Positions 1,351 through 62,177 are shown, counted from the stretch's first letter. The stretch: 64,000 nucleotides of DNA from a virus (IMGVR_UViG_3300032307_000705:19723-83722), one strand, 5' to 3'. Numbers and translations: made by a program. Notes: generated by a model not told the origin, from the sequence alone.

Positions 1351-1521
1351 TTATCGTTTCTTTTTTTCTTCAGACTGATATAATCTGAGGAGTTTGAGAG
1401 AATCTTTGTAGCGCTTTTCAAGTTTATCCAATTCTTCAACTGGAACACAAGAATCACATGCATTGTTATATTGTTCCTCGGCTTCCTGAATAATTTTTTC
1501 GATAGTCTTTATAAGTTTCAT
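1351..1521 (-). CDS. 56-aa protein not in ORF track, with IxE-type leader
   Basis: MKLIKTIEKIIQEAEEQYNNACDSCVPVEELDKLEKRYKDSLKLLRLYQSEEKKKR; TATTTATA box at 1527-1534 (minus). Confidence 0.65.
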   Translation of the reverse strand: MKLIKTIEKIIQEAEEQYNNACDSCVPVEELDKLEKRYKDSLKLLRLYQSEEKKKR

Positions 1522-1632
1522 ACACATATAAATATTATTGGGATACTACTTTATTTAGTTTTCAACAAAACTATATTATTCAATGTGTAAAAACCTGTAA
1601 TCTGGTTATTTATATTATAAGAAAAAAATTTT

Positions 1633-4600
1633 ATGTCGAGTTGTGGTACAATCTTAAATAGTGGATACACAGGGTTTGATTCAATAACCCAAGTTTATGA
1701 CTTGGATTTTACGGGGTTAGCTAATGGGTCGTCTATTGATATTACAGTTGGTTCTGTTGAAAGACCTGATTATTTTACAGTTCGAATCGATGGAACTCCT
1801 GTTGAAAATTCTGGATGGATAGGATTCGCAACCTACGCCGGACCTTGGGGAGCAACCTTGAATGGACCAACTTCATACTTTTTTTCAACAATTACTTACG
1901 ATAATACAAAGTCATATTCAGTTGATATACTCATCGGACCTGCAGATCCAGGTGCTCCAACCTCTGATGCCTATGATATCGAAGTTGATTGTGGACCAGC
2001 GCCGACACCAAATCCAACACCTGACTCGACTCCTCCTGTAACACCATCAAATACGCCTACTAATCAAACACCAACACAAACTCCTACAAATACCGAAACT
2101 CCAAGTCCCACCCCAACATTAACTCCTACTTCAACTCTTCCCCTTGGACAATGTTGGAGATTACAGTCAGCTCCATTTGGAGGATGTACATTTGTATATG
2201 TAAATCAATTTGGAGGTACAACAACCCTCAACATACCACCAGAAGATGTGGGATTGTGTTTTACAGAGTGTGTTGTATCTGTAATAAGTGATGATTGCGG
2301 ATTCTTAAATGAACTAATTCCTTGTAATGATCCACAATGCGATTGTAGTGCAATTACGCCTACTCCCACCGCTACTCCAACTGAAACTCCTACCGAAACT
2401 CCAACACAAACTCCGACTACTACTACGACTGCAACAAGTGGAACAAGTCCAACCCCTACCGAAACTCCTACCGAAACTCCTACCGAAACTCCAACACAGA
2501 CTCAAACTCAGACTGCAACCAATACGAATACTCCAACAGAAACACCAACCCAAACACCTACAGAAACACCAACACAGACAGCGACTAATACTGCAACTCC
2601 AACTGAGACACCTACGCAAACTCCAACTGAGACACCTACACAAACTCAAACTGCGACTAATACTGCTACTCCAACTGAAACACCAACCCAAACCGCAACT
2701 GCAACTGAAACACCAACATCTACCCCAACAGAAACTCCTACACAGACTCAAACGCAAACCCCAACTCAGACCGCGACTAATACCGCTACTCCAACTGAGA
2801 CTCCTACACAGACCGCGACTCAAACCCAAACCCCAACTCAGACCGCGACAAACACTTCTACTCCAACTCAAACTCCAACTCAAACTTCGACCCAAACACA
2901 AACACCTACACCAACAAATAGTATAGTTGTACAATTCCAAGATTGTACAAATGGTTCAAATATTTTCAGATTTGGTGGGCCAAGTATTCCAACAGTAATC
3001 GGAAATGTATATTATATTACAGGGAGCACTGAGTTTGAGGGTTGTGCCACAATCGTGAGTGGATTCACTGCAGGGCCATTATACGATTCTGTAGGAGTCA
3101 CCTTTACACAAGTACCAACATGTGCTGACTCATTTTGTCCAAGAACTGCCGTCACAGCGGCTTTACTAACAAAGTGCTCAAATGGTGAAGTGTTATACGC
3201 TAACGTAAATGAAGACACTGCATTTGTTGGAGCTGCCTATCTTTACAATGGTGAATGTTATAGTTTTGTGGAATTTTCTGGACCAGGTGGTCCTGATTTT
3301 GGTGATCCTGACTTCGAGGATTGTTTATTATGTGTTCCAACGCCAACTCCAACTAATACTCCACAACCAACACCAACTAATACTCCAACTATTTCACCGT
3401 CCCCTTCGGCATGTGCATTTACAGATTTTTGTTTTTACACGACTTTACCGTCTTTTTCAGGTTACAATGGAAATTACGAGGTTGCTGGAAATTATAATTC
3501 AAGATTGTACTATACAGGAGATGGAATAACTTCTGCGGTCATTTATTACACAGGAAATTATTGGTGTTTAAGCACATCTTTGGGCGGATCTTGTCTGTTG
3601 AGAGGTTCTTACCCTTGTAATTCTCAATGTCCTGATATATCTGCTAACGATTTTAGTGGAGGTATTTGTCCAACACCAACACCGACAGGAGTTGATTGTT
3701 CTACGTTCGATTTCAATGCGTACTTCGATTGCGCTTATACTCCGCCAGTAACTCCAACTCCAAGTATTGCTTGTGATGATGTTAATTTTACAATCAGTTC
3801 ATTTGGAGTAACTCCAACACCATCCCCCACAGGTAACTTCTGTGTTGGTGTTGGGATTGATTTTAGTTTGAGTGGATATACTTCAACCACTCCGTCTGTA
3901 ACCTTAACTCCTTCGGTAACATTAACGAGAACTGTATCTATTGGAGGCAGTGTATCTTTCGAGTTAATGGATCAAACCTTCAGTTGTGTATCTGTAAAAG
4001 TATTAACTGATTGTAACACAGGTGAGGAATTCTATACTAATGATTCATTATCATTTGCAGGAACACCTGTATTGATTGGTATGACAATGTTCGTTCAAGT
4101 TAATGGAGTAAATCGTTGTGTTGTATATACAAGAGATGATAATAACTTGTCATCTAACAGTAATCTTGGAAGTATTGTACAAATTTACTCTTCTTGTGAA
4201 TTCTGCAGTGTAATACCTACACCAACTCCAACGGTAACATCAACACCAACAAATACTCCAACATCAACTGCGGGTATTACACCAAGTGTAACCGCGACTC
4301 AAACGGCAACACCATCTCAAACAGCTACAAATGGTACTACACCTCCACCGACACCAACTCAAACTAGAACTCCAACGGCTACAAACACACCTACACCATC
4401 TATAACCGCATCCCCATCGGCTACTCCTAATTTCCTATATGTTTATCAATCTTGTAATCGTATTGGTGGAGGAAGAGGGACGATAACTCAAGTTATTCAA
4501 ACTCAACCAGTATCTTTCCCAATTGTTGTAAACGAAACATTCAAAGATAACGATGCTAACTGTTGGTATTTTGTTGGTCAGTTTAATACATCTTATATTC

Positions 4601-4938
4601 CATCACCAAAAGTTACACCAATAAACTTTGGAGGTAATTATTTCACAGGTGTTCCAAGTCAAACTTATTCTAATTGTGAGACATGCGCAACAGGAAACAT
4701 CGGGGCTTTCGGAAATAGTGGAGTAAGTGATGTAAGTGTTACGGACGCTTGTTCTGATGCTATTATCAATCCGAAAACATTATATTCAAATTGTCAGACG
4801 ATTAGTGTTGGGTGTACATTATACACAGATTCAACATTACAGAATGTGGTTAGTGAAATATATGTATTCCACCAAGGGGCGAATTGGGACTTAAATGGTT
4901 CGGGAGTTGTAACTGGATTATCATCAACACAATGTTAA
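1633..4938 (+). CDS. Large Pro/Thr-rich (mucin-like), Cys-rich putative virion surface/fibre protein
   Basis: Long TPTETPTQT tracts separating Cys-paired domains; no signal peptide; TATTTATA at 1607-1614. Confidence 0.7.
2355..2915 (+). repeat. Degenerate tandem coding repeat ([16 protein letters not shown] units)
   Basis: Recurrent actcctaccgaa/actccaactgag/gcgactaatac units. Confidence 0.85.
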
Positions 4939-4950
4939 AAAAAATATAAT

Positions 4951-6375: not shown

Positions 6376-6387
6376 CATTTTATAGAT

Positions 6388-9620: not shown

Positions 9621-11807
9621 ATGGCTTATATTATTAAAAATACTGCAGGACTTATTAACACCCGACTTACAGACGTTGGACGTAGAAACCTTTCTCAAGG
9701 TAACTTCAATATTTCCTATTTCCAAATTGGAGATAGTGAGGTGAGTTATACTGCAGTACCGAACTATAATCAGACCAATAATAATATTTTGATGCCGGCG
9801 TTTAACGCACAAAATGATACAGGTTCACCGCAGTCGAACAAACAAAATATAAAATATCCATACTATGTACAAGGTTCGACAGGTAACACTTATGGAATAC
9901 CTTTTATGGATAGTAACTTCCAACAGGTCTATAATTCTGCGGGAGTAAAAGGATTTTTCACAACTGGAGTCACTCAAATACAGACAAGTACCGCATATAC
10001 AATGACCACAAGTTATTGGGTTGATATGTCAACGTTGTCAGGACAAACTTCCATGCAAATCGAATTTGATAATTCACCAACAAGTTGTTTGACATCAGGT
10101 ACTCCGTCTATTAATGATTTTGTTACGATTGTATATGATGGAAATGGAGGATGTGGAGATTTTACTACAAACCAAATTTTAACATATAAGATTCAGAATA
10201 TGAGTCCTGTTACAGGAACTACAGGAAGTACATTTACATTAACCTTAGATAGATCGTTACCAACGTTTGATAACTTACCAGTTCAAACGAACTTTGCAAG
10301 ACTATATGTTTATCCGTCAGGTATGACTGAATTGTATGATTTCATTACACCGGCACCTTATTGGCAAACAGATACTCTTAACTTTGAATCACCTTGTGAT
10401 GTAAGTAATCGAGAGAATACTCTTATTTGGAACATGAACATTCCTTGGACCGAGAGCCCCGCTGGATTATTCAGTAGTACATATGAAGACTATACCAAGT
10501 TTGGGTCAGTATCATACATAGGCACTAAAGAATATTTGGGATACAACGAACCATCAGGACAGACTGACACGAGTCAAGTGTTTTATTATAATTCCTTCGA
10601 TGAGAAAATTGTTGTAAGACCTCAGGACCAAAAAGCCATTGCGATTATTCATTATACTAATCAAGATATTGATAATGTCTATGGTGAGAAATTCTCAACA
10701 CAGCCATTTGACCCACAGAATCCGACAGACGATATTGGATTAGCGAGACACTTCAAATTGAACATGCCAACATTGATGTGGCATAAATCAACAGGAACTA
10801 CCATCGGACAAACTTTCTTTATTGACCCTCCAGGATATGACTTGTGCAAACCATATTACATCAAGTCAACTAAAAACATTGACATGAATGACCCTGGTAT
10901 AAGATACTATCATTTGTGGGACACCAATGCGGATAGTAATGGTAACTTGAATAGAATAGGTAAAGTATTCCCTGACCAAGAAATTATTGTGGTTGATGAT
11001 GAAGAAGTAATTGCTGCGTTATCCTATAAATCAAACAGGAACTTTACATTACCTGCACCAAAGTTGAGTTTATTAACTCCAAACATTTGTGATACGGGAA
11101 ACAATTCTAACGGACTCATGACAAATCCGGATCAGAGATTTTGGGTAAGTTATTTATTTGAATCACAAACTGGTGTTACAAGTTCGCTTCATTGTAATTA
11201 TTATTCTGTGGTACAACCAACAAGTTCGGTTACGGCAAACACTCAAAACGTTGCAGTAAGATTCGGAGGAGAATTTGGATTCTTGGGGGTTAATGAATTT
11301 ACAGGATACACCGCTACCTCCATGAAGATTATTTGTCAAATGGTGACAGGTGATACAAGACCATCACCAACTGCTTGGAGACAGATAGATGTAACCTCAG
11401 CGATGACATTATCAAATGGGTATATCACTCAAGCATCATTGACAGGAACAACATTCCAAATAGGACTTGATGATTATAACGGTGCGGCGGCATATCAGTT
11501 ACAGAATTATTTGGACATTCCATTGAATGGACAGACCGATGTTCTGAACTTTGGCGATGAGTATTATTTTTATGGGAACTTAGAAACTGATATCTCGGCA
11601 ACGATTTATGAGATGAAATATTTGGTAAACTTGAATCGAAATCAGTTTACAAATACATCTAACCCCACATGGACACAAGGGACAAAATCATATATTACTG
11701 AAATTGGCCTTTACGATCAAAATAATGATCTTATAGTTATATCTAAGCTACAATCTCCTGAATTAAGACAGGGTATTCAACAATTTGTAGTTAAGTTAGA
11801 TTTTTAA
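9621..11807 (+). CDS. Putative baseplate/tail-collar fibre structural protein
   Basis: N-terminal LTDVGRRNL..FQIGD and C-terminal ITEIGLYDQNNDLIVISKL resemble tail-collar fibre motifs; TATTTATA at 9609-9616. Confidence 0.6.
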   Translation: MAYIIKNTAGLINTRLTDVGRRNLSQGNFNISYFQIGDSEVSYTAVPNYNQTNNNILMPAFNAQNDTGSPQSNKQNIKYPYYVQGSTGNTYGIPFMDSNFQQVYNSAGVKGFFTTGVTQIQTSTAYTMTTSYWVDMSTLSGQTSMQIEFDNSPTSCLTSGTPSINDFVTIVYDGNGGCGDFTTNQILTYKIQNMSPVTGTTGSTFTLTLDRSLPTFDNLPVQTNFARLYVYPSGMTELYDFITPAPYWQTDTLNFESPCDVSNRENTLIWNMNIPWTESPAGLFSSTYEDYTKFGSVSYIGTKEYLGYNEPSGQTDTSQVFYYNSFDEKIVVRPQDQKAIAIIHYTNQDIDNVYGEKFSTQPFDPQNPTDDIGLARHFKLNMPTLMWHKSTGTTIGQTFFIDPPGYDLCKPYYIKSTKNIDMNDPGIRYYHLWDTNADSNGNLNRIGKVFPDQEIIVVDDEEVIAALSYKSNRNFTLPAPKLSLLTPNICDTGNNSNGLMTNPDQRFWVSYLFESQTGVTSSLHCNYYSVVQPTSSVTANTQNVAVRFGGEFGFLGVNEFTGYTATSMKIICQMVTGDTRPSPTAWRQIDVTSAMTLSNGYITQASLTGTTFQIGLDDYNGAAAYQLQNYLDIPLNGQTDVLNFGDEYYFYGNLETDISATIYEMKYLVNLNRNQFTNTSNPTWTQGTKSYITEIGLYDQNNDLIVISKLQSPELRQGIQQFVVKLDF

Positions 11808-23229: not shown

Positions 23230-24027
23230 ATGAAAGAAAAATCTTCAATTCCCATCAACCAAGAAGAGATAAGTCATTATCTAAAAGACATCAGAAAGAT
23301 TAGGGTCATGACTCCTGAGAGGGAGCGTGAACTTGCTGAAAGAATGTTATCAGGGTTTATTACTGAAGAAGAGAAGAAAGAAATCCAAAAAGAATTATTG
23401 GAAGGTAACTTACGTTTCGTTATCACCGTATCGAAACAATATCAGAATCAAGGTTTGGATTTGTGTGACTTGATTGCTGAAGGTAATCTTGGATTGATGA
23501 AGGCGATTGAAAACTTTGATTGGACAAAAAGATTAAGATTCATCTCTTATGCGGTATGGTGGGTTAGACAATCTATTTTGCAATCTTTGAATGAGAATGC
23601 AAGAACTATTCGTCTACCAGTCAATGTAGTTCAAGAACTTCATAAGGCTAAGAAAGAACTTGAAAAGGCTGGTGTTGAATTACCTGAAAAGATGGTGAAT
23701 CTACCTTATACCATTAACTTGGACAATCCACTTAATGAAGAAGGTGATACATTGTTGGATATTTTGGTAAACCCAAATGCTGATTTGGCGGACAAAAACT
23801 TATCTACAGAAGACACTTTGAAAGAAAAACTTTTGAATATGTTGGATGTTTTGGACGAGAGAGAAAAGGTTATTATCGAAGATTATTTTGGGTTATCTGG
23901 TTCAACAAGAACCCTTGAGGACATTGGAACTGACTTCGATTTAACCAAAGAAAGGGTTAGACAAATCAAAGAAAAGGCTTTGAGAAAGTTACGAAACGAA
24001 ACAGGTATTCTCTTCGACTATCTGTAA
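23230..24027 (+). CDS. Sigma-70 family factor, Bacteroidota primary-sigma-like (no region 1.1)
   Basis: NLRFVITVSKQYQNQGL, EGNLGL, FISYAVWWVRQSI, TLEDIG..LTKERVRQIKEKALRKLR. Confidence 0.92.
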   Translation: MKEKSSIPINQEEISHYLKDIRKIRVMTPERERELAERMLSGFITEEEKKEIQKELLEGNLRFVITVSKQYQNQGLDLCDLIAEGNLGLMKAIENFDWTKRLRFISYAVWWVRQSILQSLNENARTIRLPVNVVQELHKAKKELEKAGVELPEKMVNLPYTINLDNPLNEEGDTLLDILVNPNADLADKNLSTEDTLKEKLLNMLDVLDEREKVIIEDYFGLSGSTRTLEDIGTDFDLTKERVRQIKEKALRKLRNETGILFDYL

Positions 24028-27202: not shown

Positions 27203-28180
27203 ATGAAAAGTTCAGCAGATTTATTCAAGAATAGTTTAGATAAAGCGTTTTCGCAGATAAGTCTGAACTCATCAACATTACAAGATCATATGAAATACAA
27301 ACAAGGATTCACAGAGGAAAATTTAGAAGGTGGTATCGCTGACAAAAAAACCGTTGAAGACATTGCAAAAAAATATAAGTTAGATGTTGAAGTCATCAAT
27401 AAACACTTGAATGATGGGATAAAAGTTGAAATGGAACATACCAATCTGAAAACTAAGGCAAAAGAAATTGCCATGGACCATTTATTTGAAGACCCTAATT
27501 ATTACACAAAATTAAAAAAAATGGAAGCAAAAGAATCTAAAGATTTGAAATTAAGTAAAAATGATAATGAGATGGTACGTGGTATCGTTGATATCATTAA
27601 TCAAGTCAAAGATGTTGAAAATAAAAAACAGATTGCTCGAAACATGGTTAAACAATTCAAAAAGGAAAACATTGAAGTCGACACCAATGAATTTTTGAAG
27701 ATGTGTAAGTTGAATGGTATGAAGAAAGAGGAAAATAACGAGGCGACAGGTTCTGGATCATCAGGAGCATATGTTGGGCCAGTATTTGGTGGTGATGATG
27801 AGTTTTGGGAAAGAAGTAGAAGTGAGACACCTAAATTGAAGGAAAGTGATGTGGAAAAGGTTGAAGCAAAAGAAGCGACGACAACAGGATCTTCAGGAGG
27901 ATATGAGACACCGGCAATGTGGGCAAAGTCTACAAAGAAAAAAGATTGGGGACCAAGTAGAAAAACTCAATACAAAGGTGGATCGTTTGTAAAGATTAAG
28001 AAGAAATGTACAACATTCCCATATTGTAATCAGGGTGATATCACAAACTTGAAACTAAGTAAAAATGAATCAGTTAAAGAAGCAATTAAGAATGTTGCGA
28101 GTAAATTGAATATTGATGAATCTCTTATTATAACTATTTTGGAACATGAGTACCAAATGAAGAATAAAAGGAACAAATAA
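27203..28180 (+). CDS. DUF5661-like domain protein, putative head-internal protein
   Basis: GIKVEMEHT..EIAMDHLFEDPNYYTKL; two EA(T)TG/SSG(A/G)Y segments. Confidence 0.65.
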   Translation: MKSSADLFKNSLDKAFSQISLNSSTLQDHMKYKQGFTEENLEGGIADKKTVEDIAKKYKLDVEVINKHLNDGIKVEMEHTNLKTKAKEIAMDHLFEDPNYYTKLKKMEAKESKDLKLSKNDNEMVRGIVDIINQVKDVENKKQIARNMVKQFKKENIEVDTNEFLKMCKLNGMKKEENNEATGSGSSGAYVGPVFGGDDEFWERSRSETPKLKESDVEKVEAKEATTTGSSGGYETPAMWAKSTKKKDWGPSRKTQYKGGSFVKIKKKCTTFPYCNQGDITNLKLSKNESVKEAIKNVASKLNIDESLIITILEHEYQMKNKRNK

Positions 28181-28207
28181 AGATATTTATTATAAAAAAT
28201 AAAAACA

Positions 28208-29641
28208 ATGAGAATCAACATAGACAAATTAGTTTCCAAAATATTGAACGAGGAAATTGAAAATAAAGCAAAACAAATTTCTGAACAGTTAGAAGAAGGA
28301 GAGTGGACTGAAATTGAAGTTGACGAACAACTTAAAGGTGGTCAAAAAAAGATTGATGTCGCCGAACCAAAAGGTAAAATCACAGCAGCAGACTTCAAAA
28401 AACTTAGAGATAATAAAACGAATAAAAAAGAAGTTGACGAGTTTTACTTTGAGTTTGATGGGGATGATTCTGAAGATGAAGAAATGGAAATGGGTAGAGA
28501 TAAATTTCATGTGACTCGTAAACCAAAAATGATGGGTTCATTTGATGATGATCACGGATTTTATGACGAAGACGAAAGACGATATACTGGAGATTTTGAC
28601 TTTGACTATGATGAAGAAGAGTTTGACGATTTCGATTCATTTGATTCTAAGTATGGAGGGAAACAAAGATTATTCGCGCCAGGTAAAGAGGGTAAAAAAT
28701 TCTTCGACATGTATAAAGAAAGGTTCGGTAAACCATTTAGAGTTAGAACTCCAAGAGACATGGGAGAAGCTGAGACTGAAGAAGGAAATGCATTTAGTGG
28801 AGCATTAGCAGACGCGAAGAAATCTGGTAAAGATTCATTTGAAGTTGATGGAAAAACATACAATGTTAAGGAAAATAGAAAATCTTCTTTGAAATTGACT
28901 GAAGATGAATTGATTGACCTAATCGAACAAATCGTGTTGGAGCAATCAGTAAAAGATAAAGACGAAAAATCAAATATTTCTAACAAGAGTCCTGAAGGTT
29001 TGAAAAAAACTGATAAGGTGTTGGGTCTTAATAAGAAAGAAAATGATGATTATGCTAAAGAGGTTGTCAAGAAGATGACAGATTATATGAAGGATATGGT
29101 TTCAGGTGGTAAAGGATATGATGAAAATCCTGACGACTTCCCTCAAAGTAATTATGACATGGAAAAAGACCATAAAGAAAAGAAATACCATCCGTCTGAT
29201 GCTGTTGAAGAATATATTGAAGCCTTTGCTTATCCTGGTATGACTAATTTGGTTTATGACGAAATCAAACCTGATGATGAAATGATTGAAAAACAAATCA
29301 AGGGAGATTCTAAAAATGGAAATGCGGTTACTGGTAAAGATGGTAAAGCATTAGGTAATGTTTCAAAAAGAAGTGAAAAAGTTGGAGAGAGATTCAAAAA
29401 GAATTTTGACGAAAACTTGTACGGAGCGGAACAAATGAACGTATCATATAAAAGACAACCACAACCTGTAGATATCGCTGGTGAAAAGAAAGAATCAGGT
29501 GGATTGAAGAAAGGTTCTACCGCAAAGGCTCAGAAAATAATGAACCAACTTGAGTCAAAAGAAGATAAGAAGTCTAAAGTTATTTCTGAAGAGATGGAAA
29601 AGATGAAAAATCTTATCGGATACAACAGAAAAACACAATAA
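28208..29641 (+). CDS. Highly charged putative prohead scaffold/internal protein
   Basis: KILNEE leader, internal LKLTEDELIDLIEQIVLEQ, terminal VISEEMEKMKNLIGY; TATTTAT at 28184-28190. Confidence 0.55.
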   Translation: MRINIDKLVSKILNEEIENKAKQISEQLEEGEWTEIEVDEQLKGGQKKIDVAEPKGKITAADFKKLRDNKTNKKEVDEFYFEFDGDDSEDEEMEMGRDKFHVTRKPKMMGSFDDDHGFYDEDERRYTGDFDFDYDEEEFDDFDSFDSKYGGKQRLFAPGKEGKKFFDMYKERFGKPFRVRTPRDMGEAETEEGNAFSGALADAKKSGKDSFEVDGKTYNVKENRKSSLKLTEDELIDLIEQIVLEQSVKDKDEKSNISNKSPEGLKKTDKVLGLNKKENDDYAKEVVKKMTDYMKDMVSGGKGYDENPDDFPQSNYDMEKDHKEKKYHPSDAVEEYIEAFAYPGMTNLVYDEIKPDDEMIEKQIKGDSKNGNAVTGKDGKALGNVSKRSEKVGERFKKNFDENLYGAEQMNVSYKRQPQPVDIAGEKKESGGLKKGSTAKAQKIMNQLESKEDKKSKVISEEMEKMKNLIGYNRKTQ

Positions 29642-33089: not shown

Positions 33090-33263
33090 ATGTTAAGTGA
33101 ACAAATTCGTAGAATCCTTTATATGTACCTTGACGAGAAGGAACAAGGAAAATATAAAAAACCTCGCAAATATAGTAAATCGTATTGTGAATCTACACCA
33201 TGTGATGAAATGGGATTCACACAGAAAGCATCTTGTCGCCCATACAAAAATTGTTATAAGTAA
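33090..33263 (+). CDS. 57-aa Cys-rich basic protein with leader, not in ORF track
   Basis: MLSEQIRRILYMYLDEKEQGKYKKPRKYSKSYCESTPCDEMGFTQKASCRPYKNCYK. Confidence 0.65.
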   Translation: MLSEQIRRILYMYLDEKEQGKYKKPRKYSKSYCESTPCDEMGFTQKASCRPYKNCYK

Positions 33264-34138: not shown

Positions 34139-34182
34139 TTATTTTTGTAATAACAATATATTTATTAATAAATTAAAGTTAA

Positions 34183-35523
34183 ATGAAATTTACTTCGTTA
34201 TTAAAGTCAATCATAGTTGAACAGTCAAGATTTGAGGTTTTGATGAACGCTTTAACTAAATCTGGTAAGGACAAAGAGGGCAATAAGTTAAGACCTAAAC
34301 TTTCAAAGAAAGAGTTTGTTGATTTGGTATTGGCAGACCCAACAACTAGATTAAACAATGTGGACATAGAAACCGCAACTCCTGAGGAATTGGGTAAAAT
34401 TAAAGCGGGAAGTTATGTTCCATGGTTGGTGAAACATTATTTGATACCAAAAACTGAGACAAGTCCTGGTGACTATACCTATGAAAAAGATGTAAAACGG
34501 GCGAAGGATGTTTTCATGGAAGACCTTTACAAGGTTACTGATGACCTTAAAAAGTTTGATAGATTCAAAGGACGACTTCCTAAAGAAATGAGAGACATCA
34601 ACAAGTTAACACCAGATCAACTTTATGATGCGGTTAAAGATTTTGATTTAACATTAGCGACTACAACAAAGGCAGAAAGAAAGTCTGCACCTGTTCATCC
34701 AGGAGCAAAGTTAGTTTATGACGGGGAAAATTGGAGGGTTGTTGAAATTGAGGACAAAGGACAAGTAGGTAAGGAGGCGGCTTGTTTCTATGGTGGAAAC
34801 AACCAAGAAACGAGATGGTGTACTTCAGCACCAGGGGCTAGTTGGTTCGACAGATACATAAAAGACGGACCGTTATATGTTATTTTCAATCCTAATGATA
34901 CTGATGTCAGTCCAATGACAGGTCTTCCTAAAGAAAGATATCAATTCCATTTCCAATCTAATCAATTCATGGATAAGGATGACAGACAACAAGATTTAGT
35001 TCAATTATTGAATGGGTCTATGTCTGAGTTGAAACCTTTCTTCAAACCTGAATTTGCAAAAAATATTGTACTCGGAGGTAAAGAATTGAAAATTGAGAGT
35101 TTAACTTCAGGTTCTGTTGGTAAATTCATTGCATTATATGGTTTAGAGGATTTGATGGACAGTTTACCTAAATCTTTGGAAAGAATTCTAATTCAAAACA
35201 GAGACAGTAAAGACCCAATACATGTGGAATTACCTGAAGATATCGGCAAGCTTCAAAACTTGACGAATATTCTTACAGACAATATTACATTCTCAAAAAT
35301 ACCTGATTCAATATGTAATCTTAAAAATTTGAATTTTTTAGCGATTACTAGAAATCCTGAATTAACAACAATACCTGATTGTGTTGCTGATTTACCGAAT
35401 CTTATGTTTTTGAATCTAAAAGGATCTGACAACGCAAGAATACCTAAGAAAATAGAAGAAAAAGGTGATCCAATAGGCCCTAACATGTGGGATTTGGAAT
35501 TAATGGACAAAAGTGAAGATTAG
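34183..35523 (+). CDS. Leader + YG..TRWCT domain + C-terminal leucine-rich repeats
   Basis: MKFTSLLKSIIVEQ; AACFYGGNNQETRWCTS; LPEDIGKLQNL/IPDSICNLKNL; TATTTAT at 34159-34165. Confidence 0.75.
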   Translation: MKFTSLLKSIIVEQSRFEVLMNALTKSGKDKEGNKLRPKLSKKEFVDLVLADPTTRLNNVDIETATPEELGKIKAGSYVPWLVKHYLIPKTETSPGDYTYEKDVKRAKDVFMEDLYKVTDDLKKFDRFKGRLPKEMRDINKLTPDQLYDAVKDFDLTLATTTKAERKSAPVHPGAKLVYDGENWRVVEIEDKGQVGKEAACFYGGNNQETRWCTSAPGASWFDRYIKDGPLYVIFNPNDTDVSPMTGLPKERYQFHFQSNQFMDKDDRQQDLVQLLNGSMSELKPFFKPEFAKNIVLGGKELKIESLTSGSVGKFIALYGLEDLMDSLPKSLERILIQNRDSKDPIHVELPEDIGKLQNLTNILTDNITFSKIPDSICNLKNLNFLAITRNPELTTIPDCVADLPNLMFLNLKGSDNARIPKKIEEKGDPIGPNMWDLELMDKSED

Positions 35524-45920: not shown

Positions 45921-46283
45921 ATGGCAAAAGTAATAAAATTAACTGAATCGGATTTAACAAGAGTTGTTAGAAGAGTGATTAACGAACAAATGTATCACCG
46001 AGAACATATTTACAGAATACAGGCTTTTCTGAATAAAAGAATGAATGCGGGTTTGGTAGTTGATGGTAGAACTGGTCGAAATTCAAAGACTGAGGAAGCA
46101 ATTGCTAAATACCAAGACATGATCGGAGTATATCCTACAGATGGACAATTTGGGGACAAAACTTACGCCAAAATGCCTGAAAAGGACAAAATTATGTTGA
46201 AAAACATAAATGCTAATGAGTATGGTGTACACGAAGATTATTGGGGAAATTTTCTCGATTGGGTCAAAAAACAGTTCCAATGA
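45921..46283 (+). CDS. Leader + peptidoglycan-binding domain protein
   Basis: MAKVIKLTESDLTRVVRRVINEQ; IQAFLN..VVDGRTG..AIAKYQ..DGQFGDKT. Confidence 0.75.
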   Translation: MAKVIKLTESDLTRVVRRVINEQMYHREHIYRIQAFLNKRMNAGLVVDGRTGRNSKTEEAIAKYQDMIGVYPTDGQFGDKTYAKMPEKDKIMLKNINANEYGVHEDYWGNFLDWVKKQFQ

Positions 46284-47683
46284 AAAAAATATTAAAAGAG
46301 AGTGGTATTCGGGATATTAAAGAATTAAGTAAACGATATCCCAAGGCAGAAATCTACTTCCATCAGGATTTAGATGGGGTAACGACTGCGATTGCAATGA
46401 AAAAGTACCTTGAGAGTAATGGTATTGATGTTGTTGACGCTCACGTAATTCAATACGGGGACAAAGAATTCGCAGTAAAAAAGAATGACGCAATGGGAGA
46501 TACCATGCCAGTACTTGTTGACTTTGCACATGGAAAACCAATGTTTGTTATTCACACAGACCATCATGATAGACAGGCTGGTGCTGAAGATACAAAGTCT
46601 ACATCATTTCGACAGTCTCGATCTAATGTTGCAACAATATCACAGGTTGTTTCACCAAAAGACCTTTTTCCATCATCAGATATATTGTTAATCAATACAG
46701 TTGACTCAGCAGATTTTGCAAGACAAAACTTAAGTCCCGAAGACGTAGTTAATTATCTTTACCGATTTGATAGAGAAACTTCCCTTCAAGGAAATAAGAT
46801 GTTGTTAGGATTGGTGATTAACAAATTATTGCTAGCGTTCAAGAACAAACCTGGTTTCTTAGAGATGTTAGTTATGGATTCACAACCATCTCTGATGTCT
46901 ATTTTGAATAATATCAAATCTTGGATGAAGTCTGTTGGAGCTCCAACACCTGAAGAACTACAGAAGAACGCCGAAGATTATACACAGAAAATGAAATCAT
47001 TTCCAACTGTAACGGATAATATCATTTTCCAATATGGTGGAGGAAGTATGTTTAAGCCAGGTTCTTATGATAGATACACTCCTTATAAGAACAATCCTGA
47101 GGCAGATTTTTTAATTATGGCATGGCCGATGGGACTTGTCCAAGCATCTTGTAACCCATTCAAACAAGATAGAGAACTTAAAGGTGTAAATTTGGGTGAG
47201 ATTGCTCAGGAAGTATTGGGTAAATGGGAAGAACAATTAAGACAAAAAACTGTCCCATTATCAACAATAAAGTGGGTTAGTGAAACAAGTGTTGGACCTG
47301 AGAGTATTGGATTCACATTCAAAGATTTTAAGGCGTTGTATGGGGACAAAATAATGTTCATGGATAATGGTGAAAAAGTCATGAGTAAAATTGAATCTAT
47401 GATGGAAAAACCTTTCAAGAGTTTGACTGAAGATGAGATGAGAATTTTGGATAAAATTGGAGTCAATGCTTGGGATTTGATACAATCTAACTCAGGTGGA
47501 CACAAATGTATTACAAATATATCAGGGTTAAACTATCTTGGTAGAAGTACAAGACCTCCTCAAGGTGGATACAAGTATAATGATTCAGAAGATAGTCCAA
47601 CAGTTAAGTTTACAAAAATGATTGCAAATCAATTCCAAAAAATTTTGAAGGAAAAAATAGCGGAATCTAAAACAAGTAATTAA
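46280..47683 (+). CDS. DHH-family phosphoesterase-like protein
   Basis: HQDLDG, LVDF, TDHHD, late SGGHK; MKKILKES start coupled to previous stop. Confidence 0.7.
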   Translation: MKKILKESGIRDIKELSKRYPKAEIYFHQDLDGVTTAIAMKKYLESNGIDVVDAHVIQYGDKEFAVKKNDAMGDTMPVLVDFAHGKPMFVIHTDHHDRQAGAEDTKSTSFRQSRSNVATISQVVSPKDLFPSSDILLINTVDSADFARQNLSPEDVVNYLYRFDRETSLQGNKMLLGLVINKLLLAFKNKPGFLEMLVMDSQPSLMSILNNIKSWMKSVGAPTPEELQKNAEDYTQKMKSFPTVTDNIIFQYGGGSMFKPGSYDRYTPYKNNPEADFLIMAWPMGLVQASCNPFKQDRELKGVNLGEIAQEVLGKWEEQLRQKTVPLSTIKWVSETSVGPESIGFTFKDFKALYGDKIMFMDNGEKVMSKIESMMEKPFKSLTEDEMRILDKIGVNAWDLIQSNSGGHKCITNISGLNYLGRSTRPPQGGYKYNDSEDSPTVKFTKMIANQFQKILKEKIAESKTSN

Positions 47684-55392: not shown

Positions 55393-55429
55393 TCAGCAAA
55401 GTATTTCGTTCTTTGTGTATTTATATATA

Positions 55430-55861
55430 ATGAGAGACCTTATCCGAAAAATATTAAGAGAAGAACGAAACGTTGATTATACTCGTCTAATACAGAAACT
55501 AGTTGATAGCTCTATAGTTTCCAAATATCCTGATGATATTTGTAAAATAGAAGTTGATGGGAATACTAAAAATGTTCAATATCCAAGATATTGGGTTTCA
55601 GTGATATTCAAAGTCAGTCTCAATCATCTTACGGTCCATGATTTAGCAAAAAATATAATGAATGAAATTTACACTACTGTAAATGATTACTTTGGGATCC
55701 CACCTCAAATGCGTTCGGCATTTGTCCGTAATTGTGAGGAGGATACTACAGATTTATTCGAAGGTGAAATAACTGAAAGATGTTGGAAAGGATATACTCA
55801 GAAAGGGATGAAAACCATGTTTGGAAAAAGATATCCGAACTGTGTTAAGAAAAAGAAATAA
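55430..55861 (+). CDS. Leader protein with C-terminal CWKGY..PNCV peptide
   Basis: MRDLIRKILREE; ITE-RCWKGY..YPNCVKKKK; TATTTAT at 55418-55424. Confidence 0.75.
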   Translation: MRDLIRKILREERNVDYTRLIQKLVDSSIVSKYPDDICKIEVDGNTKNVQYPRYWVSVIFKVSLNHLTVHDLAKNIMNEIYTTVNDYFGIPPQMRSAFVRNCEEDTTDLFEGEITERCWKGYTQKGMKTMFGKRYPNCVKKKK

Positions 55862-56997: not shown

Positions 56998-57024
56998 CCC
57001 TCACCCAAAAGGTGGGGGTTTTTT
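56998..57024 (+). terminator. Terminator of a repeated family (also near 60940 and 62182)
   Basis: CCCTCACC-CAAAA-GGTGGGGG plus T run. Confidence 0.75.
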
Positions 57025-57045
57025 ATTTCCTGTATATTTATCTAT

Positions 57046-57927
57046 ATGAATTTGCATGAAGACATAAATAGGATTAAGGAAGTCATGGGACTCGACAGGA
57101 AACCTGAAGTTGTTAGGAAAGGTGAACTTACTAACAAATACGGTGAAGAGATAACTATGATATTATTTGATGATGGGGAAGTAAATTTCAAACATACTGA
57201 CTATGGTAATGAATTCCTACCACTAAGAAGTCTGTTACGTAAAGATTCTGAAGGAAACTCAATGTTTATGGTGGTTCTGAATCAAGAGGAAAAAGATTTT
57301 GTTAATAACTTCCTCCGAGATACAAAATATCAAAATGAAAGTTACAATCCGACAATCACTGAAAGCCGTGATATGTTCTTCAGGAGAAGACAGGACGAAT
57401 TTCTTGATGATCTTATTACTTCTTTCGAGTGGATGGAGGTAGAAGAAGCGGATAGTTTTGAAGAATATCTTGAGATGATTTTAACACATTCAATAGATGG
57501 TTTCTTTGGTCATAATAATATTCTTCTGACTTATGAAGAAATAGAGGAGCTAATCCCATTTGCTCTTCAAACATTACGTAATGACGAAAGATTATTTAGA
57601 AAAATCAGACACCATTACTATTCAAGTGAAGACTCATCAATCAATGAATCCAAGGAACTTGTTCGTGTCAAAAGAAGAATGGATGCTTTGCTTGATTATA
57701 TTGAAGCTTCATATGATTGGTTGTCACCACGTAGATTCAAAGACTTTGATGATTTTTTAGAAAGGGTTGCATTCTCAGCAACAAGAGATTTTGTTGCCGA
57801 TGAAATAGGAGGGGAATACCAAGAACAGTTAAAAATATGTGACGAGTTAGAGCCAATGGTATTGGATTTAATAAAGAAACATTCGATATACGATGAGATT
57901 TACGATCACTATATCTCCAACATATAA
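57046..57927 (+). CDS. Leader-bearing multi-module protein (apparent polyprotein)
   Basis: MNLHEDINRIKEVMG leader; modules start after ITE-S and INE-S; TATTTAT at 57035-57041. Confidence 0.75.
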   Translation: MNLHEDINRIKEVMGLDRKPEVVRKGELTNKYGEEITMILFDDGEVNFKHTDYGNEFLPLRSLLRKDSEGNSMFMVVLNQEEKDFVNNFLRDTKYQNESYNPTITESRDMFFRRRQDEFLDDLITSFEWMEVEEADSFEEYLEMILTHSIDGFFGHNNILLTYEEIEELIPFALQTLRNDERLFRKIRHHYYSSEDSSINESKELVRVKRRMDALLDYIEASYDWLSPRRFKDFDDFLERVAFSATRDFVADEIGGEYQEQLKICDELEPMVLDLIKKHSIYDEIYDHYISNI

Positions 57928-57931
57928 CCAA

Positions 57932-58276
57932 ATGAATTTACAAGAAGATATAAATAGAATCAAGGAGGTTATGGGGATCAATGAAGGTTTCCTTAATACT
58001 TTTCTAAGAAGAAGAATTCCTGCGTTTTTAGATGCAGTTGTTGATGTTGCTGACCAAATATATGTTAGGGGAGACAGAGAATATTCTGACGATGATTTCA
58101 GGAATTTTTTAGACAGGTCAATATTTGCTTCAGTAAGAGACGTAGTAGAAACTTATGATTTAACCCACGAAGAATTAAGGGAACTTGAAATTATTTTATT
58201 AAGAACAATCAATAGAGACAGAGAACTGTTTCAAACACTCAAACAAATCTACATAAGCAAACTCCATTTAGAATGA
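57932..58276 (+). CDS. Leader + RR-module paralog
   Basis: MNLQEDINRIKEVMGINE-GFLNTFLRRR. Confidence 0.75.
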   Translation: MNLQEDINRIKEVMGINEGFLNTFLRRRIPAFLDAVVDVADQIYVRGDREYSDDDFRNFLDRSIFASVRDVVETYDLTHEELRELEIILLRTINRDRELFQTLKQIYISKLHLE

Positions 58277-58608
58277 ACTTAAAAGAAGATATAGATAGAA
58301 TCAAAGAAGTGATGGGGATTAATGAGAGTAACCCATATCTTAAGAGAAGATTCCCTGAACTTATTCCTGCGGTTATTCAAGCCGCAGAGTGGTACGTTCC
58401 ATCATTCATGCCTGACTTTGAGACATATGTAGATAGAGCAATATACTCGGGGATTATAAGTGTAATACCTGATAGTTATGCTGATTCACACGCGGATGAA
58501 ATGTATGAGTTAGAAGATATGGTCAGAAATTACATCTACAATAATGAGGAAGCACACGAGAAGTTTAAGTCTTTATATATGGGTAGTGGCAAAAAATATA
58601 AAGGGTAG
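58273..58608 (+). CDS. Leader + RR-module paralog
   Basis: MNLKEDIDRIKEVMGINE-SNPYLKRR. Confidence 0.75.
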   Translation: MNLKEDIDRIKEVMGINESNPYLKRRFPELIPAVIQAAEWYVPSFMPDFETYVDRAIYSGIISVIPDSYADSHADEMYELEDMVRNYIYNNEEAHEKFKSLYMGSGKKYKG

Positions 58609-58615
58609 TAACCAA

Positions 58616-58900
58616 TTACCCAGCCATATAAACTTTCACATGAAATTCATTCTCAAACCAATTCGTAATGAATCTAACTGCTTCCTTTCGAGTAAGACCG
58701 AACATAGTTTCGAACTCATCCAAGAATTCGCCCAATATGAATAGTTCTCTTTTTCTTGGGAAATATTCTAAATAGTTCTCCTCATCATCATACACGGCGA
58801 TACCCGCTTGATTATCGATTACATCCTTACTTAATAAGAAAGAATCCAAATACTTTTTCATGATGTTATCAAGTCGACTCTCGGAGATAATATATTTCAT
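58616..58900 (-). CDS. MKYIISE family paralog 4
   Basis: MKYIISESRLDNIMKKYLDSFL..WFENEF. Confidence 0.8.
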   Translation of the reverse strand: MKYIISESRLDNIMKKYLDSFLLSKDVIDNQAGIAVYDDEENYLEYFPRKRELFILGEFLDEFETMFGLTRKEAVRFITNWFENEFHVKVYMAG

Positions 58901-59190
58901 TTTACATTGAATTCTTTCTTGAACCAATCTTTTATAAAGGTAATAGATTCTTCATAATCTTTATTAAACAAATAGCTGAATTCCTCAATAAATTGATTGT
59001 TCACCCATAAGTCCTCATCGTCATGGTTATAGAACATATATTCAGTCCAAAAAGAAGTGTCATCATCAGTATTCCGATCCGCGATTACCAAACTATCACC
59101 ATAATCCAAGATTTGTTTGGAGGTTAAGAATGAATCCAAATAACTTGTCATGATTTTATCAAGCCGACCCTCAGATATAATATATTTCAT
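58897..59190 (-). CDS. MKYIISE family paralog 3
   Basis: TATTTAT at 59195-59201 (minus). Confidence 0.8.
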   Translation of the reverse strand: MKYIISEGRLDKIMTSYLDSFLTSKQILDYGDSLVIADRNTDDDTSFWTEYMFYNHDDEDLWVNNQFIEEFSYLFNKDYEESITFIKDWFKKEFNVK

Positions 59191-59209
59191 ATAGATAAAT
59201 ATAAGGAAA

Positions 59210-59503
59210 TTAAAACGAGGTCATTGATTTTCGGACTGTAACTCCAAATTGGTTTTCAAACCAACCGAGAATGAATTGGAGAGCTTGGGGTCTTGTAAGG
59301 TTAAACATGGTTTCGAAAGTATCTAAAAAGTCCTCTAATGTAAATAACTCTCTTGGTCTTGGCAAGTAAGTAAAAAGTAAGTTATCTCCATCGTACACGA
59401 GGGTACTTGTTTGGGTATTAATTATATCTTTATCCAATAAAAAACTGTCCAAGTATTTTATCATGATTTTATCAAGCTGACTTTCAGATATAATATATTT
59501 CAT
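59210..59503 (-). CDS. MKYIISE family paralog 2
   Basis: TATTTAT at 59508-59514 (minus). Confidence 0.8.
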   Translation of the reverse strand: MKYIISESQLDKIMIKYLDSFLLDKDIINTQTSTLVYDGDNLLFTYLPRPRELFTLEDFLDTFETMFNLTRPQALQFILGWFENQFGVTVRKSMTSF

Positions 59504-59565
59504 GTTAATAAATATCGGTTAAATAAAAAGGGGGTTGGGGGAAAATCGAACCCGGTGTACGACAG
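59483..59565. repeat. Direct repeat copy 1 (about 83 bp: gene start, TATTTAT box, G-rich element); copy 2 at 59858-59941
   Basis: ttcagatataatatatttcatgttaataaatatcggt..gggggttggggga..atcga.cccgg..tacgacag in both. Confidence 0.85.
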
Positions 59566-59566
59566 A

Positions 59567-59878
59567 TTAATAGGTGAATGGTTCATCAGGAAATAACAAC
59601 CATACTGTCCTTGCTCGTGTATTATATTCGTCCTGAAACCAATTTCTAATATATCTCATACTTTCTTTTCGACTTAAATTAAAAATGGTGTCTATATCTT
59701 CAATTAAATCAGTGCTAATGTATAATCTCTCTTCTTCATAACGGTAAGCCAGTACTTCACTATTACCCTGCATTATATCGAACCCATCGGCATCATCATT
59801 CCCTTCTGTGAACCCCAAAGAACTTAAGTACTTATTCACCAATCTCTCTAATCTTTGTTCAGATATAATATATTTCAT
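59567..59878 (-). CDS. MKYIISE family paralog 1
   Basis: TATTTAT at 59883-59889 (minus). Confidence 0.8.
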   Translation of the reverse strand: MKYIISEQRLERLVNKYLSSLGFTEGNDDADGFDIMQGNSEVLAYRYEEERLYISTDLIEDIDTIFNLSRKESMRYIRNWFQDEYNTRARTVWLLFPDEPFTY

Positions 59879-59994
59879 GTTAATAAATATCGGTAAAATA
59901 AAAAAGGGGGTTGGGGGATAATCGACCCCGGCATACGACAGTTATATTGTTACAAACTATTTAATATTATAATAATATAAGTATATTAGAAATT

Positions 59995-60477: not shown

Positions 60478-60480
60478 CAG

Positions 60481-60894
60481 TTACAATGTCATACCACATT
60501 CCTTAGTCACGGGTTCTAGGACCCATTCTTCCTTTAATACTTCAGGTAAGTCACTTATTTTATTTGTCACGGGTACAAGAACTTGCTCGTCCATAGACTT
60601 TCTCACGTACTTATACTTAGGTCGACAGTCCACCCAATGATTCACTACGGTGTCAGCGGTGATATAATTCACAGAGAACATCAACTCCAATCTGGCGATG
60701 ATTTCCTTTCTCATGTCAAACCAACTATTTTTAGACCTACCGACTCTTCTATCGTCAAACCAATTTCCTTGTGCATCCTTATCAAAGGTCTCTACCACAT
60801 CGCCCAAGTGATTTAACTCCAATAGATAAATCTCAGGGTACATGGAGTCCAAGTACGACATCATCAATCTCTTAAGTTTCAGGGTATTCTTCAT
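60481..60894 (-). CDS. Hypothetical protein, leaderless relative of the MKYIISE family
   Basis: LKRLMMSYLDSM..LELMFSV..VNHWV; TACCTTTG box at 60900-60907 (minus). Confidence 0.65.
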   Translation of the reverse strand: MKNTLKLKRLMMSYLDSMYPEIYLLELNHLGDVVETFDKDAQGNWFDDRRVGRSKNSWFDMRKEIIARLELMFSVNYITADTVVNHWVDCRPKYKYVRKSMDEQVLVPVTNKISDLPEVLKEEWVLEPVTKECGMTL

Positions 60895-60974
60895 AGTTCC
60901 AAAGGTACGAATAATAATCAGATTATCCAACAAGTTCGTTCATTCAAAAGGTGGGGGTTTTATATTTATTAAAG

Positions 60975-62177
60975 ATGAGAGAACTTATTAGACATATTAT
61001 TCGAGAACAAACGAGGGAAGTTATTTTAGAGATGCCAAAAAAATCAACCCAAGATGAATTTATTACGAAAGCTAAGGGAATTCATGGTGATAAATACGAC
61101 TATTCTGAAGTAGAATATAAATCTAATCATGTACCTGTCACTATTATTTGTCCGATTCATGGGTCATTTTCACAAACGCCTGCTTCTCATTTAATGGGAA
61201 GGGGTTGTAAACCATGTGGTTACAAAACCACTACAGAAAAAAATACATTTTGGACTAAAGAGGAAGCATTCAAAGAGGCTTCAAAATATGAAAACCTGAC
61301 TGATTTCCAAAGGTTCTCTGGAGGTGCATATGCTTCAGCAAAAAAAAATGGTTGGGTAGAGGATATTACAAAAAACTACGTAGTAAAAAAAATAGATTGG
61401 ACAATCGATAAATTGAGGGATATTACCTTACAATACGATAATGTCAAAGATTTTAGAAGAGACTATTATAATGCATATCATGCCCTTAGAAGAAAAGGAC
61501 TTCTTTATGACTTCACATCTCATATGGTCAGACCAAATGAATGGTCTGATGAGGATATAGAGAACGAGGCACGTAAATATAAAACAATTCAAGATTTTTG
61601 TAATGCCTCTCCGAATTTGTGTAATTATGCTAGACGCAGGGGATTAATGTCAAAGTTCAAAGAGTTTTTAGATTCTAAACTAACAAATTGGACTGATGAT
61701 ATGTTAAAAAAAGAAGCATTAAAATATCAAACATCTGTGGATTTCGCTCGAGAATCAGGAGGAGCTTATAAAGCAGCAATTAAGAGAGGAATTTATAATC
61801 AAATAACTTCTCATTTCTTAACAAAAGTATCTTCAGGCGAAATACTTATCGAAAACTTATTGGTTAAAAATAAAATCAAATTCTATAAACAACATAAATT
61901 TTTAGATTGTCATAATAGTAGACAAGGAACTGCATGTAAACAATTACCATTCGATTTTTATTTACCAAAATATAATTGTTGTATCGAATATGATGGTGAA
62001 CAACATTTCAAACCTAAAAAATTTTTCGGAGGAGAAGAAGGGTTTTTAAGAAGGCAACAATTAGATAAAATCAAAGACCAATACTGTGAAGAAAACGGAA
62101 TCAAACTTATCCGAATTCCTTACACGATGAAGAAGGAAGATATAGAACCATATATCTTAAGTGAATTAGGAATGTAA
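60975..62177 (+). CDS. Homing-endonuclease-like protein (CPxHG Zn domain, helical repeats, C-terminal Vsr/DUF559-like nuclease) with leader
   Basis: MRELIRHIIREQ; YDYS..ICPIHG..GCKPC; WTxE..EAxKY repeats; LPFDFYLP..IEYDGEQH; TATTTAT at 60963-60969. Confidence 0.8.
   Translation: MRELIRHIIREQTREVILEMPKKSTQDEFITKAKGIHGDKYDYSEVEYKSNHVPVTIICPIHGSFSQTPASHLMGRGCKPCGYKTTTEKNTFWTKEEAFKEASKYENLTDFQRFSGGAYASAKKNGWVEDITKNYVVKKIDWTIDKLRDITLQYDNVKDFRRDYYNAYHALRRKGLLYDFTSHMVRPNEWSDEDIENEARKYKTIQDFCNASPNLCNYARRRGLMSKFKEFLDSKLTNWTDDMLKKEALKYQTSVDFARESGGAYKAAIKRGIYNQITSHFLTKVSSGEILIENLLVKNKIKFYKQHKFLDCHNSRQGTACKQLPFDFYLPKYNCCIEYDGEQHFKPKKFFGGEEGFLRRQQLDKIKDQYCEENGIKLIRIPYTMKKEDIEPYILSELGM

Follow-up and report, generated by a model that had tools for sequence, protein, structure and literature searches.

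In phage T4, the prohead protease gp21 cuts after L/I-x-E, and N-terminal targeting sequences of 10–19 residues are found on otherwise unrelated internal proteins; replacement of the Glu at the site by Asp blocks processing but not targeting (PMC9026906, PMC3012670). Such capsid-targeting sequences (CTSs) are carried by IPI, IPII, IPIII, and Alt and are removed by gp21 (PMC9026906, PMC3012670). In the jumbo phages phiKZ, 201phi2-1, and SPN3US, many head and inner-body proteins, some of them members of paralogue families, are processed by gp21-like proteases after the Glu of a three-residue motif (PMC9026906, PMC7411985, PMC10052503). Here, we examined a 64-kb stretch of viral DNA (hereafter, the window), comprising bases 19723–83722 of the 83.7-kb IMG/VR virus contig IMGVR_UViG_3300032307_000705 (CheckV completeness, 24%), together with its relatives, for short conserved N-terminal peptides (hereafter, leaders) that recur on unrelated proteins. 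We propose, with a probability of roughly one half, that these leaders are portable N-terminal propeptides that act as functional analogues of the T4 CTSs, expanded to several classes.

The leaders resemble the T4 CTSs in that they are short, putative N-terminal propeptides on unrelated proteins, with a hydrophobic-x-Glu site within the first 7–22 residues. T4 and the lineage studied here also share a gp21-family protease, a head gene order of portal, small core proteins, protease, scaffold, and gp23-type capsid protein, and cargo loci that are hypervariable between close relatives. The lineage differs from T4 in having at least seven leader classes rather than essentially one, leaders of up to approximately 25 residues with two or three candidate sites, 25–48 leader genes per genome versus about five, and frequent internal copies. 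As in phiKZ, 201phi2-1, and SPN3US, redundant sites occur within one putative propeptide; however, the phiKZ-type sites are S/A/G-x-E and lie in long propeptides that do not serve as a portable tag common to different proteins, whereas P3 is hydrophobic here and the capsid protein is of the T4 gp23 type. Although this kind of system is known from T4, its scale here (several classes that substitute for one another, approximately 10% of the genes, and thousands of clusters), the internal copies, and the coupling to one promoter class with a fixed, probably leaderless spacing are undescribed as far as the literature and family databases show.

The relatives were identified from a conserved protein of 728 amino acids (aa) encoded at positions 9621–11807 of the window, which has relatives on 486 viral contigs, among them complete genomes of 309–326 kb. 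In one complete relative (G001), this protein was 98% identical and the DNA approximately 88% identical. Three complete relatives (G001, G004, and G005) were fetched whole, and the genes in them were called with one simple caller. The metagenome runs containing the phage sequence came from lake, freshwater, and estuary samples, and the nearest cultured phage was Flavobacterium phage immuto (NC_055915), whose capsid protein and primase were 42% and 29% identical, respectively. The source is probably an uncultured freshwater jumbo phage of approximately 320 kb with a host in the Bacteroidota; the host assignment is based on the relationship to immuto and on the host-type TAnnTTTG boxes that precede many genes.

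Leaders shared among unrelated proteins

The original prediction described leaders ending in or containing (I/L/V)-x-E on unrelated cargo proteins, and every N-terminus that it quoted is present in the sequence where it was placed. The pattern itself is not discriminating: within the first 25 residues, it occurred in 38 of the 111 N-termini encoded in the window, compared with 31.7% of internal 25-aa windows (p = 0.34). For an unbiased test of sharing, local alignment scores of N-terminal 30-mers were compared between pairs of proteins without BLASTP similarity in their bodies. Within the window, this test was not significant (nine N-terminal pairs scoring ≥35, versus eight internal, four C-terminal, and five shuffled pairs), and the case for the leaders therefore rests on the relatives. 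Among 507,694 pairs without body homology in G001, G004, and G005, 433 N-terminal pairs scored ≥50, against 8 pairs for residues 37–66, 12 for the C-termini, and 1 for shuffled N-termini. Thus, the loose pattern and the window-only test did not bear out the predicted sharing, but in the three relatives it was massive. Motif discovery on the N-termini was similarly divided, in that the loose motif was not enriched, whereas each other genome showed enrichment of a stricter one that had been derived post hoc from the window (p = 1e−7 to 1e−10). The Glu of [IL]-x-E was concentrated at particular positions: it occurred 65 times at residue 7, where 12.9 occurrences were expected, 44 times at residue 9, and 33 and 32 times at residues 22 and 23, respectively, with Thr favored before the motif and Ser or Gln after it.

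When single linkage was applied at a score of 42, unrelated N-termini were merged into one component of 131 members, and explicit class patterns were adopted instead; these patterns are post hoc, and the counts per class are approximate. Seven leader classes were defined, of which A–D are found in the window, and every class ends in or contains two or three [ILV]-x-E sites. Class A (M-x-K-I-I-K-L-T-E-S-D-L-x-R-L-V-K-R-V-I-x-E-Q; short form, KLTESDLxRVVKRVIxEQ) had 24 members in 20 body families; class B (M-N-L-x-E-D-I-x-R-I-K-E-V-M-G) had 13 members in 9; class C (M-K-Y-I-I-T-E, often running on to L-I-x-E-Q) had 52 members in 32, across four genomes; and class D (M-R-D-L-I-R-K-I-L-R-E-E; MRDLIRKILREE) had 7 members in 6. 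Class G (..E-E-K-x-R-I-L-x-L-H-E-S-A..Y-L-x-E-Q) and class N each had four members in four families, and class H had two members in two. The window itself encodes a single class A leader and two of class D, and its class B and class C members are sets of paralogues. Each complete genome contained 25–38 leader genes by the class patterns and 36–48 by a looser similarity graph, so that roughly 7–12% of the genes, or approximately one in ten, appear to begin with a short conserved peptide from a small set. The bodies behind the leaders include PPK2 (238 bits), MORN repeats, LRR, GNAT acetyltransferase, DHH, and PG-binding domains. The PPK2 protein, an unexpected enzyme as a putative capsid cargo, is encoded in G004 at 165560–166666 (L127:5560–6666, minus strand; 238 bits); it bears both a class B leader and some 110 additional residues at the N-terminus. 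In immuto, two small groups of proteins share leaders: MKKQILSEQFKRMQ.LAGIITES, which is class B-like and ends in I-I-T-E-S, on gp230 and gp083, and MENFDLKKFLVENKLT.NSK on gp003, gp076, and gp077 (annotated PduO-type adenosyltransferase).

Besides Met1, the sole invariant residues of class A were Glu9 and Glu22, each in an [ILV]-x-E context. When PG-binding orthologues were compared, P0036 and P0037 carried a class G-like leader and the window protein a class A leader, and only the two Glu residues and the following Gln were invariant. The body of the class D protein at 55430 reappears in G004 (G004_223085) behind a class A-like leader (E = 3e−17), and the body of the protein at 46280 has a homologue in G005 (E = 1.5e−26), encoded next to the capsid gene, whose leader is of class G. 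Further swaps on homologous bodies were from C to D, from C to B, and from B to a D-like leader. The presence of different classes on homologous bodies supports the earlier suggestion of several interchangeable leader classes.

I-x-E motifs also stand at the boundaries of modules. The 293-aa protein encoded at positions 57046–57927 (plus strand; class B leader MNLHEDINRIKEVMG; TATTTAT at 57035–57041, box start at −11) contains two modules of approximately 95 aa, each preceded by I-x-E-S (57352–57366 and 57637–57651). Downstream of it, two single-module genes on the same strand (57932–58276 and 58273–58608), which have no box of their own, each begin with a class B leader ending in G-I-N-E. When the four modules, two chained and two in separate genes, were aligned, each started directly after I-[TN]-E-[SG].

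Among 1.84 billion representatives, a class A profile built from 21 leaders matched 8,846 clusters (50% identity) at E ≤1e−3 and 389 at E ≤1e−10. In the best 150 metagenome proteins, the class A motif occurred 189 times, 141 times at the N-terminus and 48 times internally, and 38 of the 150 proteins contained two or more copies. The position of the second Glu, which was left free in the search pattern, was occupied by Glu in 185 of the 189 occurrences in these best 150 hits and by Asp in none, which fits T4 processing, in which Asp is rejected (PMC9026906). In many metagenome proteins (P0049–P0112; e.g., P0049, P0050, P0054, P0065, and P0112), a second or third full class A copy lies between domains. 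Most of these copies have no preceding Met, and they are genuine internal copies rather than fused gene calls.

At identical leader residues, the use of the same codon was near the expectation from codon usage (0.565 versus 0.445, 0.561 versus 0.516, and 0.525 versus 0.491), indicating that selection acts on the leader peptide and not on the DNA. Conservation of the leaders at the DNA level was rejected by this synonymous-codon test, and the leader codons of paralogues were not near-identical. No family in Pfam or PHROGs spans any leader; a tblastn search of 50,697 cultured-phage records with the class A, class B, and immuto leaders returned nothing except immuto itself; and a full-text literature search with six leader strings returned no relevant paper. 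On inspection, the leaders showed neither a hydrophobic core of at least 10 residues nor a twin-arginine motif, as expected of Sec and Tat signal peptides, respectively; they are charged amphipathic helices without a hydrophobic run. The leaders exist, are modular and interchangeable, and are selected as peptides.

A TATTTAT promoter class common to leader and head genes

The T4 late promoter is a single −10-type AT-rich octamer that is read by a phage sigma factor; it stands ahead of the head genes and of numerous small accessory genes. The promoters of the leader genes are similar in that they consist of a single AT-rich box without a clear upstream element, and a phage sigma-family gene is present (23230–24027, plus strand). 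They differ in the box itself, in its spacing, from which transcription would probably start at the ATG or approximately 10 nucleotides (nt) upstream, and in the sigma factor, which is of the full sigma-70 type with regions 1.2, 2, and 4 (Pfam Sigma70_r2, 53 bits; r4, 54 bits).

The sequence TATTTAT occurs 44 times in the window, compared with 32 ± 6 expected, a signal that is weak by number but sharp in position. It starts at −11/−12 relative to the ATG (107 genes) or at −20 to −25 (approximately 90 genes) and is near background elsewhere, and the extended consensus of the box is ATATTTAT. It precedes 58 of the 95 leader genes (61%) versus 197 of 1,059 other genes, and the association holds in every genome (odds ratio, 4–15; p = 8e−4 to 1e−12). 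Approximately 20–26% of all genes carry the box, which also stands ahead of the protease–scaffold–capsid operon, the gene of a 232-aa protein at a core position, and other conserved late-looking genes; in immuto, it precedes the portal gene and neighboring structural genes. The original prediction had treated TATTTAT as one component of an address-tag system. Its association with leader genes was upheld, but TATTTAT is a general phage promoter class common to leader and head genes and is not part of an address tag.

Neither TATTTAT nor ATATTTAT matches TAnnTTTG, the −7 box of the Bacteroidota housekeeping promoter. Boxes of this host type precede other genes (159 occurrences versus 64 for a control pattern; most commonly TATCTTTG) at the same two spacings, and they were found before none of the 95 leader genes versus 83 of the 1,059 others (p = 0.001). 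Both promoter types end 4–5 nt or approximately 13–18 nt before the ATG (e.g., 55418–55432, 57035–57048, 59188–59201, and 60963–60977). By the geometry of Bacteroidota promoters, a −7 box at these spacings would direct transcription to begin either with the A of the ATG itself or approximately 10 nt upstream. The two sharp distances therefore predict that many transcripts are leaderless or have a 5′ untranslated region of approximately 10 nt, and the fixed spacing hints at widespread leaderless translation in Bacteroidota phages. The sigma-70-family factor encoded at 23230–24027 may be the reader of the TATTTAT promoters. Its gene lies behind genes with host-type TATCTTTG boxes (21640, 22141, and 22656).

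The prohead protease and the proposed role in capsid targeting

The head module of the lineage is of the T4 type and encodes a portal protein, proteins of 232 and 149 aa, a Peptidase_S77 protease, a 70-aa protein, a 525-aa scaffold-like protein, and a gp23-type capsid protein; the same module is present in immuto. Of ten head-module proteins, only the portal was recognized by PHROGs. A search for a gp21-like protease, which had been suggested as a check on the leader idea, was positive. Peptidase_S77, the gp21 family, was detected at 77–92 bits in all five complete relatives first tested, and also in 9 of 15 further long contigs found via the class A DNA pattern, including all five that were ≥90% complete; the six contigs without it were 37–71% complete. 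In total, all ten complete leader-bearing genomes encode the protease, with scores of 77–92 bits. The gene lies outside the window's own incomplete contig (84 kb, 24% complete), and the evidence for it comes from the relatives. In an alignment with T4 gp21, the catalytic residues His85 and Ser140 were invariant in the lineage, and the N-terminus of the protease reads I-L-I-E where T4 gp21 has its L-I-E site. The capsid protein aligns L-I-N-E↓A-S exactly with the T4 gp23 cleavage position (F-L-T-E↓A), and candidate L/I-x-E sites are also present at the N-termini of the scaffold proteins. In three genomes, the capsid gene is followed immediately by leader genes.

In the proposed mechanism, leader genes would be transcribed from the phage promoter ATATTTAT, which would also drive the head-morphogenesis operon, and many of the mRNAs would be leaderless. 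The amphipathic leader would bind the scaffolding core of the prohead, so that the attached cargo would be enclosed; the gp21-type protease would then cut after the Glu of [I/L/V]-x-E at approximately residues 7–9 and again at approximately residue 22, as well as at the I-x-E junctions between modules. The cargo would thereby be freed inside the head and delivered with the DNA. The leader genes share a promoter class with the head genes and co-occur with a protease whose catalytic residues are intact; core binding, cleavage, presence in virions, and injection we infer by analogy with T4. We favor capsid targeting because Glu and not the hydrophobic face is invariant, because dissimilar leaders are equivalent on homologous bodies, and because the I-x-E motif stands at the junctions between modules. 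Three further features point in the same direction: leader genes share their promoter class with the head genes, some of them lie next to the capsid gene, and they co-occur with a prohead protease. A looser analogy is provided by the cargo-loading peptides of encapsulins, which are short and portable and direct unrelated enzymes into an HK97-fold shell, and which are usually C-terminal, remain uncleaved, and bind the shell protein. They have no sequence relation to the leaders, and the likeness would lie in a short portable peptide on unrelated enzymes.

Several points weigh against capsid targeting. For this lineage and its close relatives, loading and cleavage are deduced from sequence and from the T4 precedent, and [ILV]-x-E is common in any amphipathic helix rich in Glu, Lys, and Ile, so that its presence is not independent evidence of cutting. 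N-terminal targeting requires neither the internal class A motifs (48 of 189) nor the multi-copy proteins (38 of 150). Many class C proteins are conserved well beyond Glu7, as in an ordinary paralogue family, and a leader-bearing homing endonuclease (60975) would be an odd cargo. All leader-bearing genomes may form one clade, and the co-occurrence with the protease is therefore weak evidence. In a comparison that did not extend to the T4 internal-protein genes, the leaders shared only hydrophobic-x-Glu with the N-termini of T4 head proteins. In an AlphaFold model of a class A protein, the leader was a low-confidence extension of helix 1 (predicted local distance difference test score, 51–68), which is non-decisive.

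The strongest alternative, although we consider it unlikely, is that the leaders are uncleaved docking or oligomerization helices that tie many proteins to one common partner, such as the virion surface, an assembly hub, or another phage-made complex, rather than signals for the capsid interior. The amphipathic helix keeps its hydrophobic positions, the motif is also found internally and in two or three copies per protein, as would be compatible with multivalent docking, the leader is predicted to form a helix continuous with the domain, and co-expression with structural genes also fits attachment to the outside of the virion. However, it is the two Glu of [ILV]-x-E, where Asp is never accepted, and not the hydrophobic face that are strictly invariant; leaders of 7 to 25 residues and very different sequence interchange on the same body, which is hard to reconcile with one binding groove; and the module boundaries fall at I-x-E-S.

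It is still less probable that there is no addressing at all and that the leaders are alike because small, rapidly evolving proteins are remotely paralogous and best conserved in their first helix; restrictions on the opening codons of leaderless, AT-rich mRNAs may add to this. Such paralogy would account for the class B and C sets in the window, the non-significant unbiased test there, and the conservation of class C beyond its first Glu, but not for class A, B, and G leaders on such defined and unrelated families as PPK2, GNAT, DHH, and PG-binding proteins, or for orthologous bodies that bear different leaders. Regarding a translational constraint, many of the genes would be leaderless, with the box 4–5 nt before the ATG, and the codons of MKYIITE are very AT-rich; however, the internal copies cannot serve initiation, and codon choice within the leaders varies freely.

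There is very little likelihood that the promoter and first codons form a recombination cassette that is homogenized at the DNA level by gene conversion, with the similarity of the leaders as a by-product of shuffling. Contigs of relatives do skip whole genes, with joints at gene starts (58901→59192, 58900→59896, and 60939→62245), and the differences between G000 and G001 are concentrated in the leader-gene cluster at 56.4–62.2 kb. In contrast, the DNA identity of the leaders is not maintained, as the codon test above showed, and the leaders are conserved across genomes that are only approximately 70% identical in the 728-aa protein and across thousands of clusters; the shuffling at the joints is real but explains the spread of the leaders, not their conservation. 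In T4-type genomes, PeSLs are promoter/stem-loop cassettes that mediate modular shuffling. Like PeSLs, the terminator–promoter joints here flank small accessory genes and are sites of gain, loss, and swap, but the conserved unit reaches into the coding region and is kept as a peptide, not as DNA. Least probable, finally, is a role of the leaders as recognition peptides of the ribosomally synthesized and post-translationally modified peptide (RiPP) type for putative protein-tailoring enzymes predicted upstream on the contig (radical SAM/SPASM, ATP-grasp-Hint, and 2OG oxygenases): RiPP systems typically have numerous precursors in which the leader is conserved and the rest is variable, but the bodies here are folded domains of 100–500 residues, enzymes among them, the leader genes are scattered rather than placed beside the tailoring genes, and no partner of the RiPP recognition element type was identified.

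A more far-reaching form of the capsid-targeting proposal is that a clade-wide, multi-class address code makes approximately a tenth of the proteome, including the PPK2, GNAT, DHH, and PG-binding proteins, into capsid cargo that is released by the protease and co-injected with the DNA. We regard this as possible but tentative, with the odds against it. The code would be used by a large clade of freshwater jumbo phages, probably of Bacteroidota, and its class A by itself comprises at least 8,846 protein clusters; the leader classes might differ in the amount, position, or release step that they specify for the cargo. If such a code exists, the injected effector set of uncultured phages could be readable directly from sequence. 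Capsid loading would likewise yield, from sequence only, a list of the proteins injected by an abundant uncultured clade of lake and estuary jumbo phages, and these proteins would be likely to include anti-defense and host-takeover factors. The leaders would then offer natural tags with which foreign proteins could be packaged into large capsids, and the T4 mechanism would be a widely scaled-up strategy and not a curiosity of a few internal proteins. The idea is open to direct testing in immuto, a cultured phage that shares the head module and the box ahead of structural genes and has two small groups of leaders; the literature search found no virion proteome of this phage.

Other leader genes and candidates in the window

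The single class A leader of the window, MAKVIKLTESDLTRVVRRVINE (45921–45986, plus strand; Glu9 and Glu22), begins a 120-aa PG-binding-like protein (45921–46283); in the relatives, 21 leaders of this class were counted on 20 body families. The class D leader MRDLIRKILRE (55430–55462, plus strand) begins a 143-aa protein (55430–55861) preceded by TATTTAT at 55418–55424 (box start at −12). At its C-terminus (55781–55861), this protein has a Cys motif, C-W-K-G-Y-T-Q-K-G..K-R-Y-P-N-C, which matches the C-termini of several PHROGs of unknown function and is retained in the G004 homologue that bears a different leader.

Four tandem class C genes (MKYIISE...) lie on the minus strand at 58616–58900, 58897–59190, 59210–59503, and 59567–59878, with TATTTAT at 59195–59201, 59508–59514, and 59883–59889 on the same strand. 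Between 58616 and 62245, contigs of relatives delete or replace whole cassettes, and a further joint is at 59208→59566. The HNH/homing-type endonuclease (60975–62177, plus strand; PHROG 559, 163 bits) has a class D-like start, MRELIRHIIRE, and TATTTAT at 60963–60969; a functional role of this leader is doubtful. The endonuclease cassette is absent from the 88%-identical G001, which has two other genes at the site, and from other contigs.

The original prediction also listed leaders at 28208, 34183, 33090, 1521, and 46280, but these were weak or confined to their own orthologues. The DHH-family protein (46280–47683, plus strand; Pfam DHH, 24.5 bits, under the cut-off) has the short start MKKILKE. 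The LRR protein of 446 aa (34183–35523, plus strand) starts with MKFTSLLKSIIVE and has TATTTAT at 34159–34165; its leader is found only in orthologues, and its class membership is weak. A charged, low-complexity protein of 477 aa (28208–29641, plus strand; TATTTAT at 28184–28190) has a leader-like N-terminus that is kept in the orthologues of G001, G004, and G005, an internal class A-like motif (28889–28945; LKLTEDELIDLIEQIVLEQ), and a C-terminal class H-like motif (29582–29623), and it is possibly a scaffold-like or internal head protein. Its gene lies after that of a DUF5661 protein (27203–28180).

Two small open reading frames (ORFs) complete the set. On the minus strand, an ORF of approximately 56–58 aa starts at 1521 (MKLIKTIEKIIQE; 1351–1534 including the box), with TATTTAT at 1528–1534 (box start at −13), and is kept in G001, G004, and G005. 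The start at 1521 agrees with the box spacing and with the orthologues, and the sharing of this leader with other proteins is only a candidate. The 57-aa ORF MLSEQIRRILYMYLDE... (33090–33263, plus strand) is a conserved small gene without a box, has tblastn orthologues in G001 and G004, and is weak as a leader gene. Its end (33177–33263) is a looser version of the Cys motif of the class D protein.

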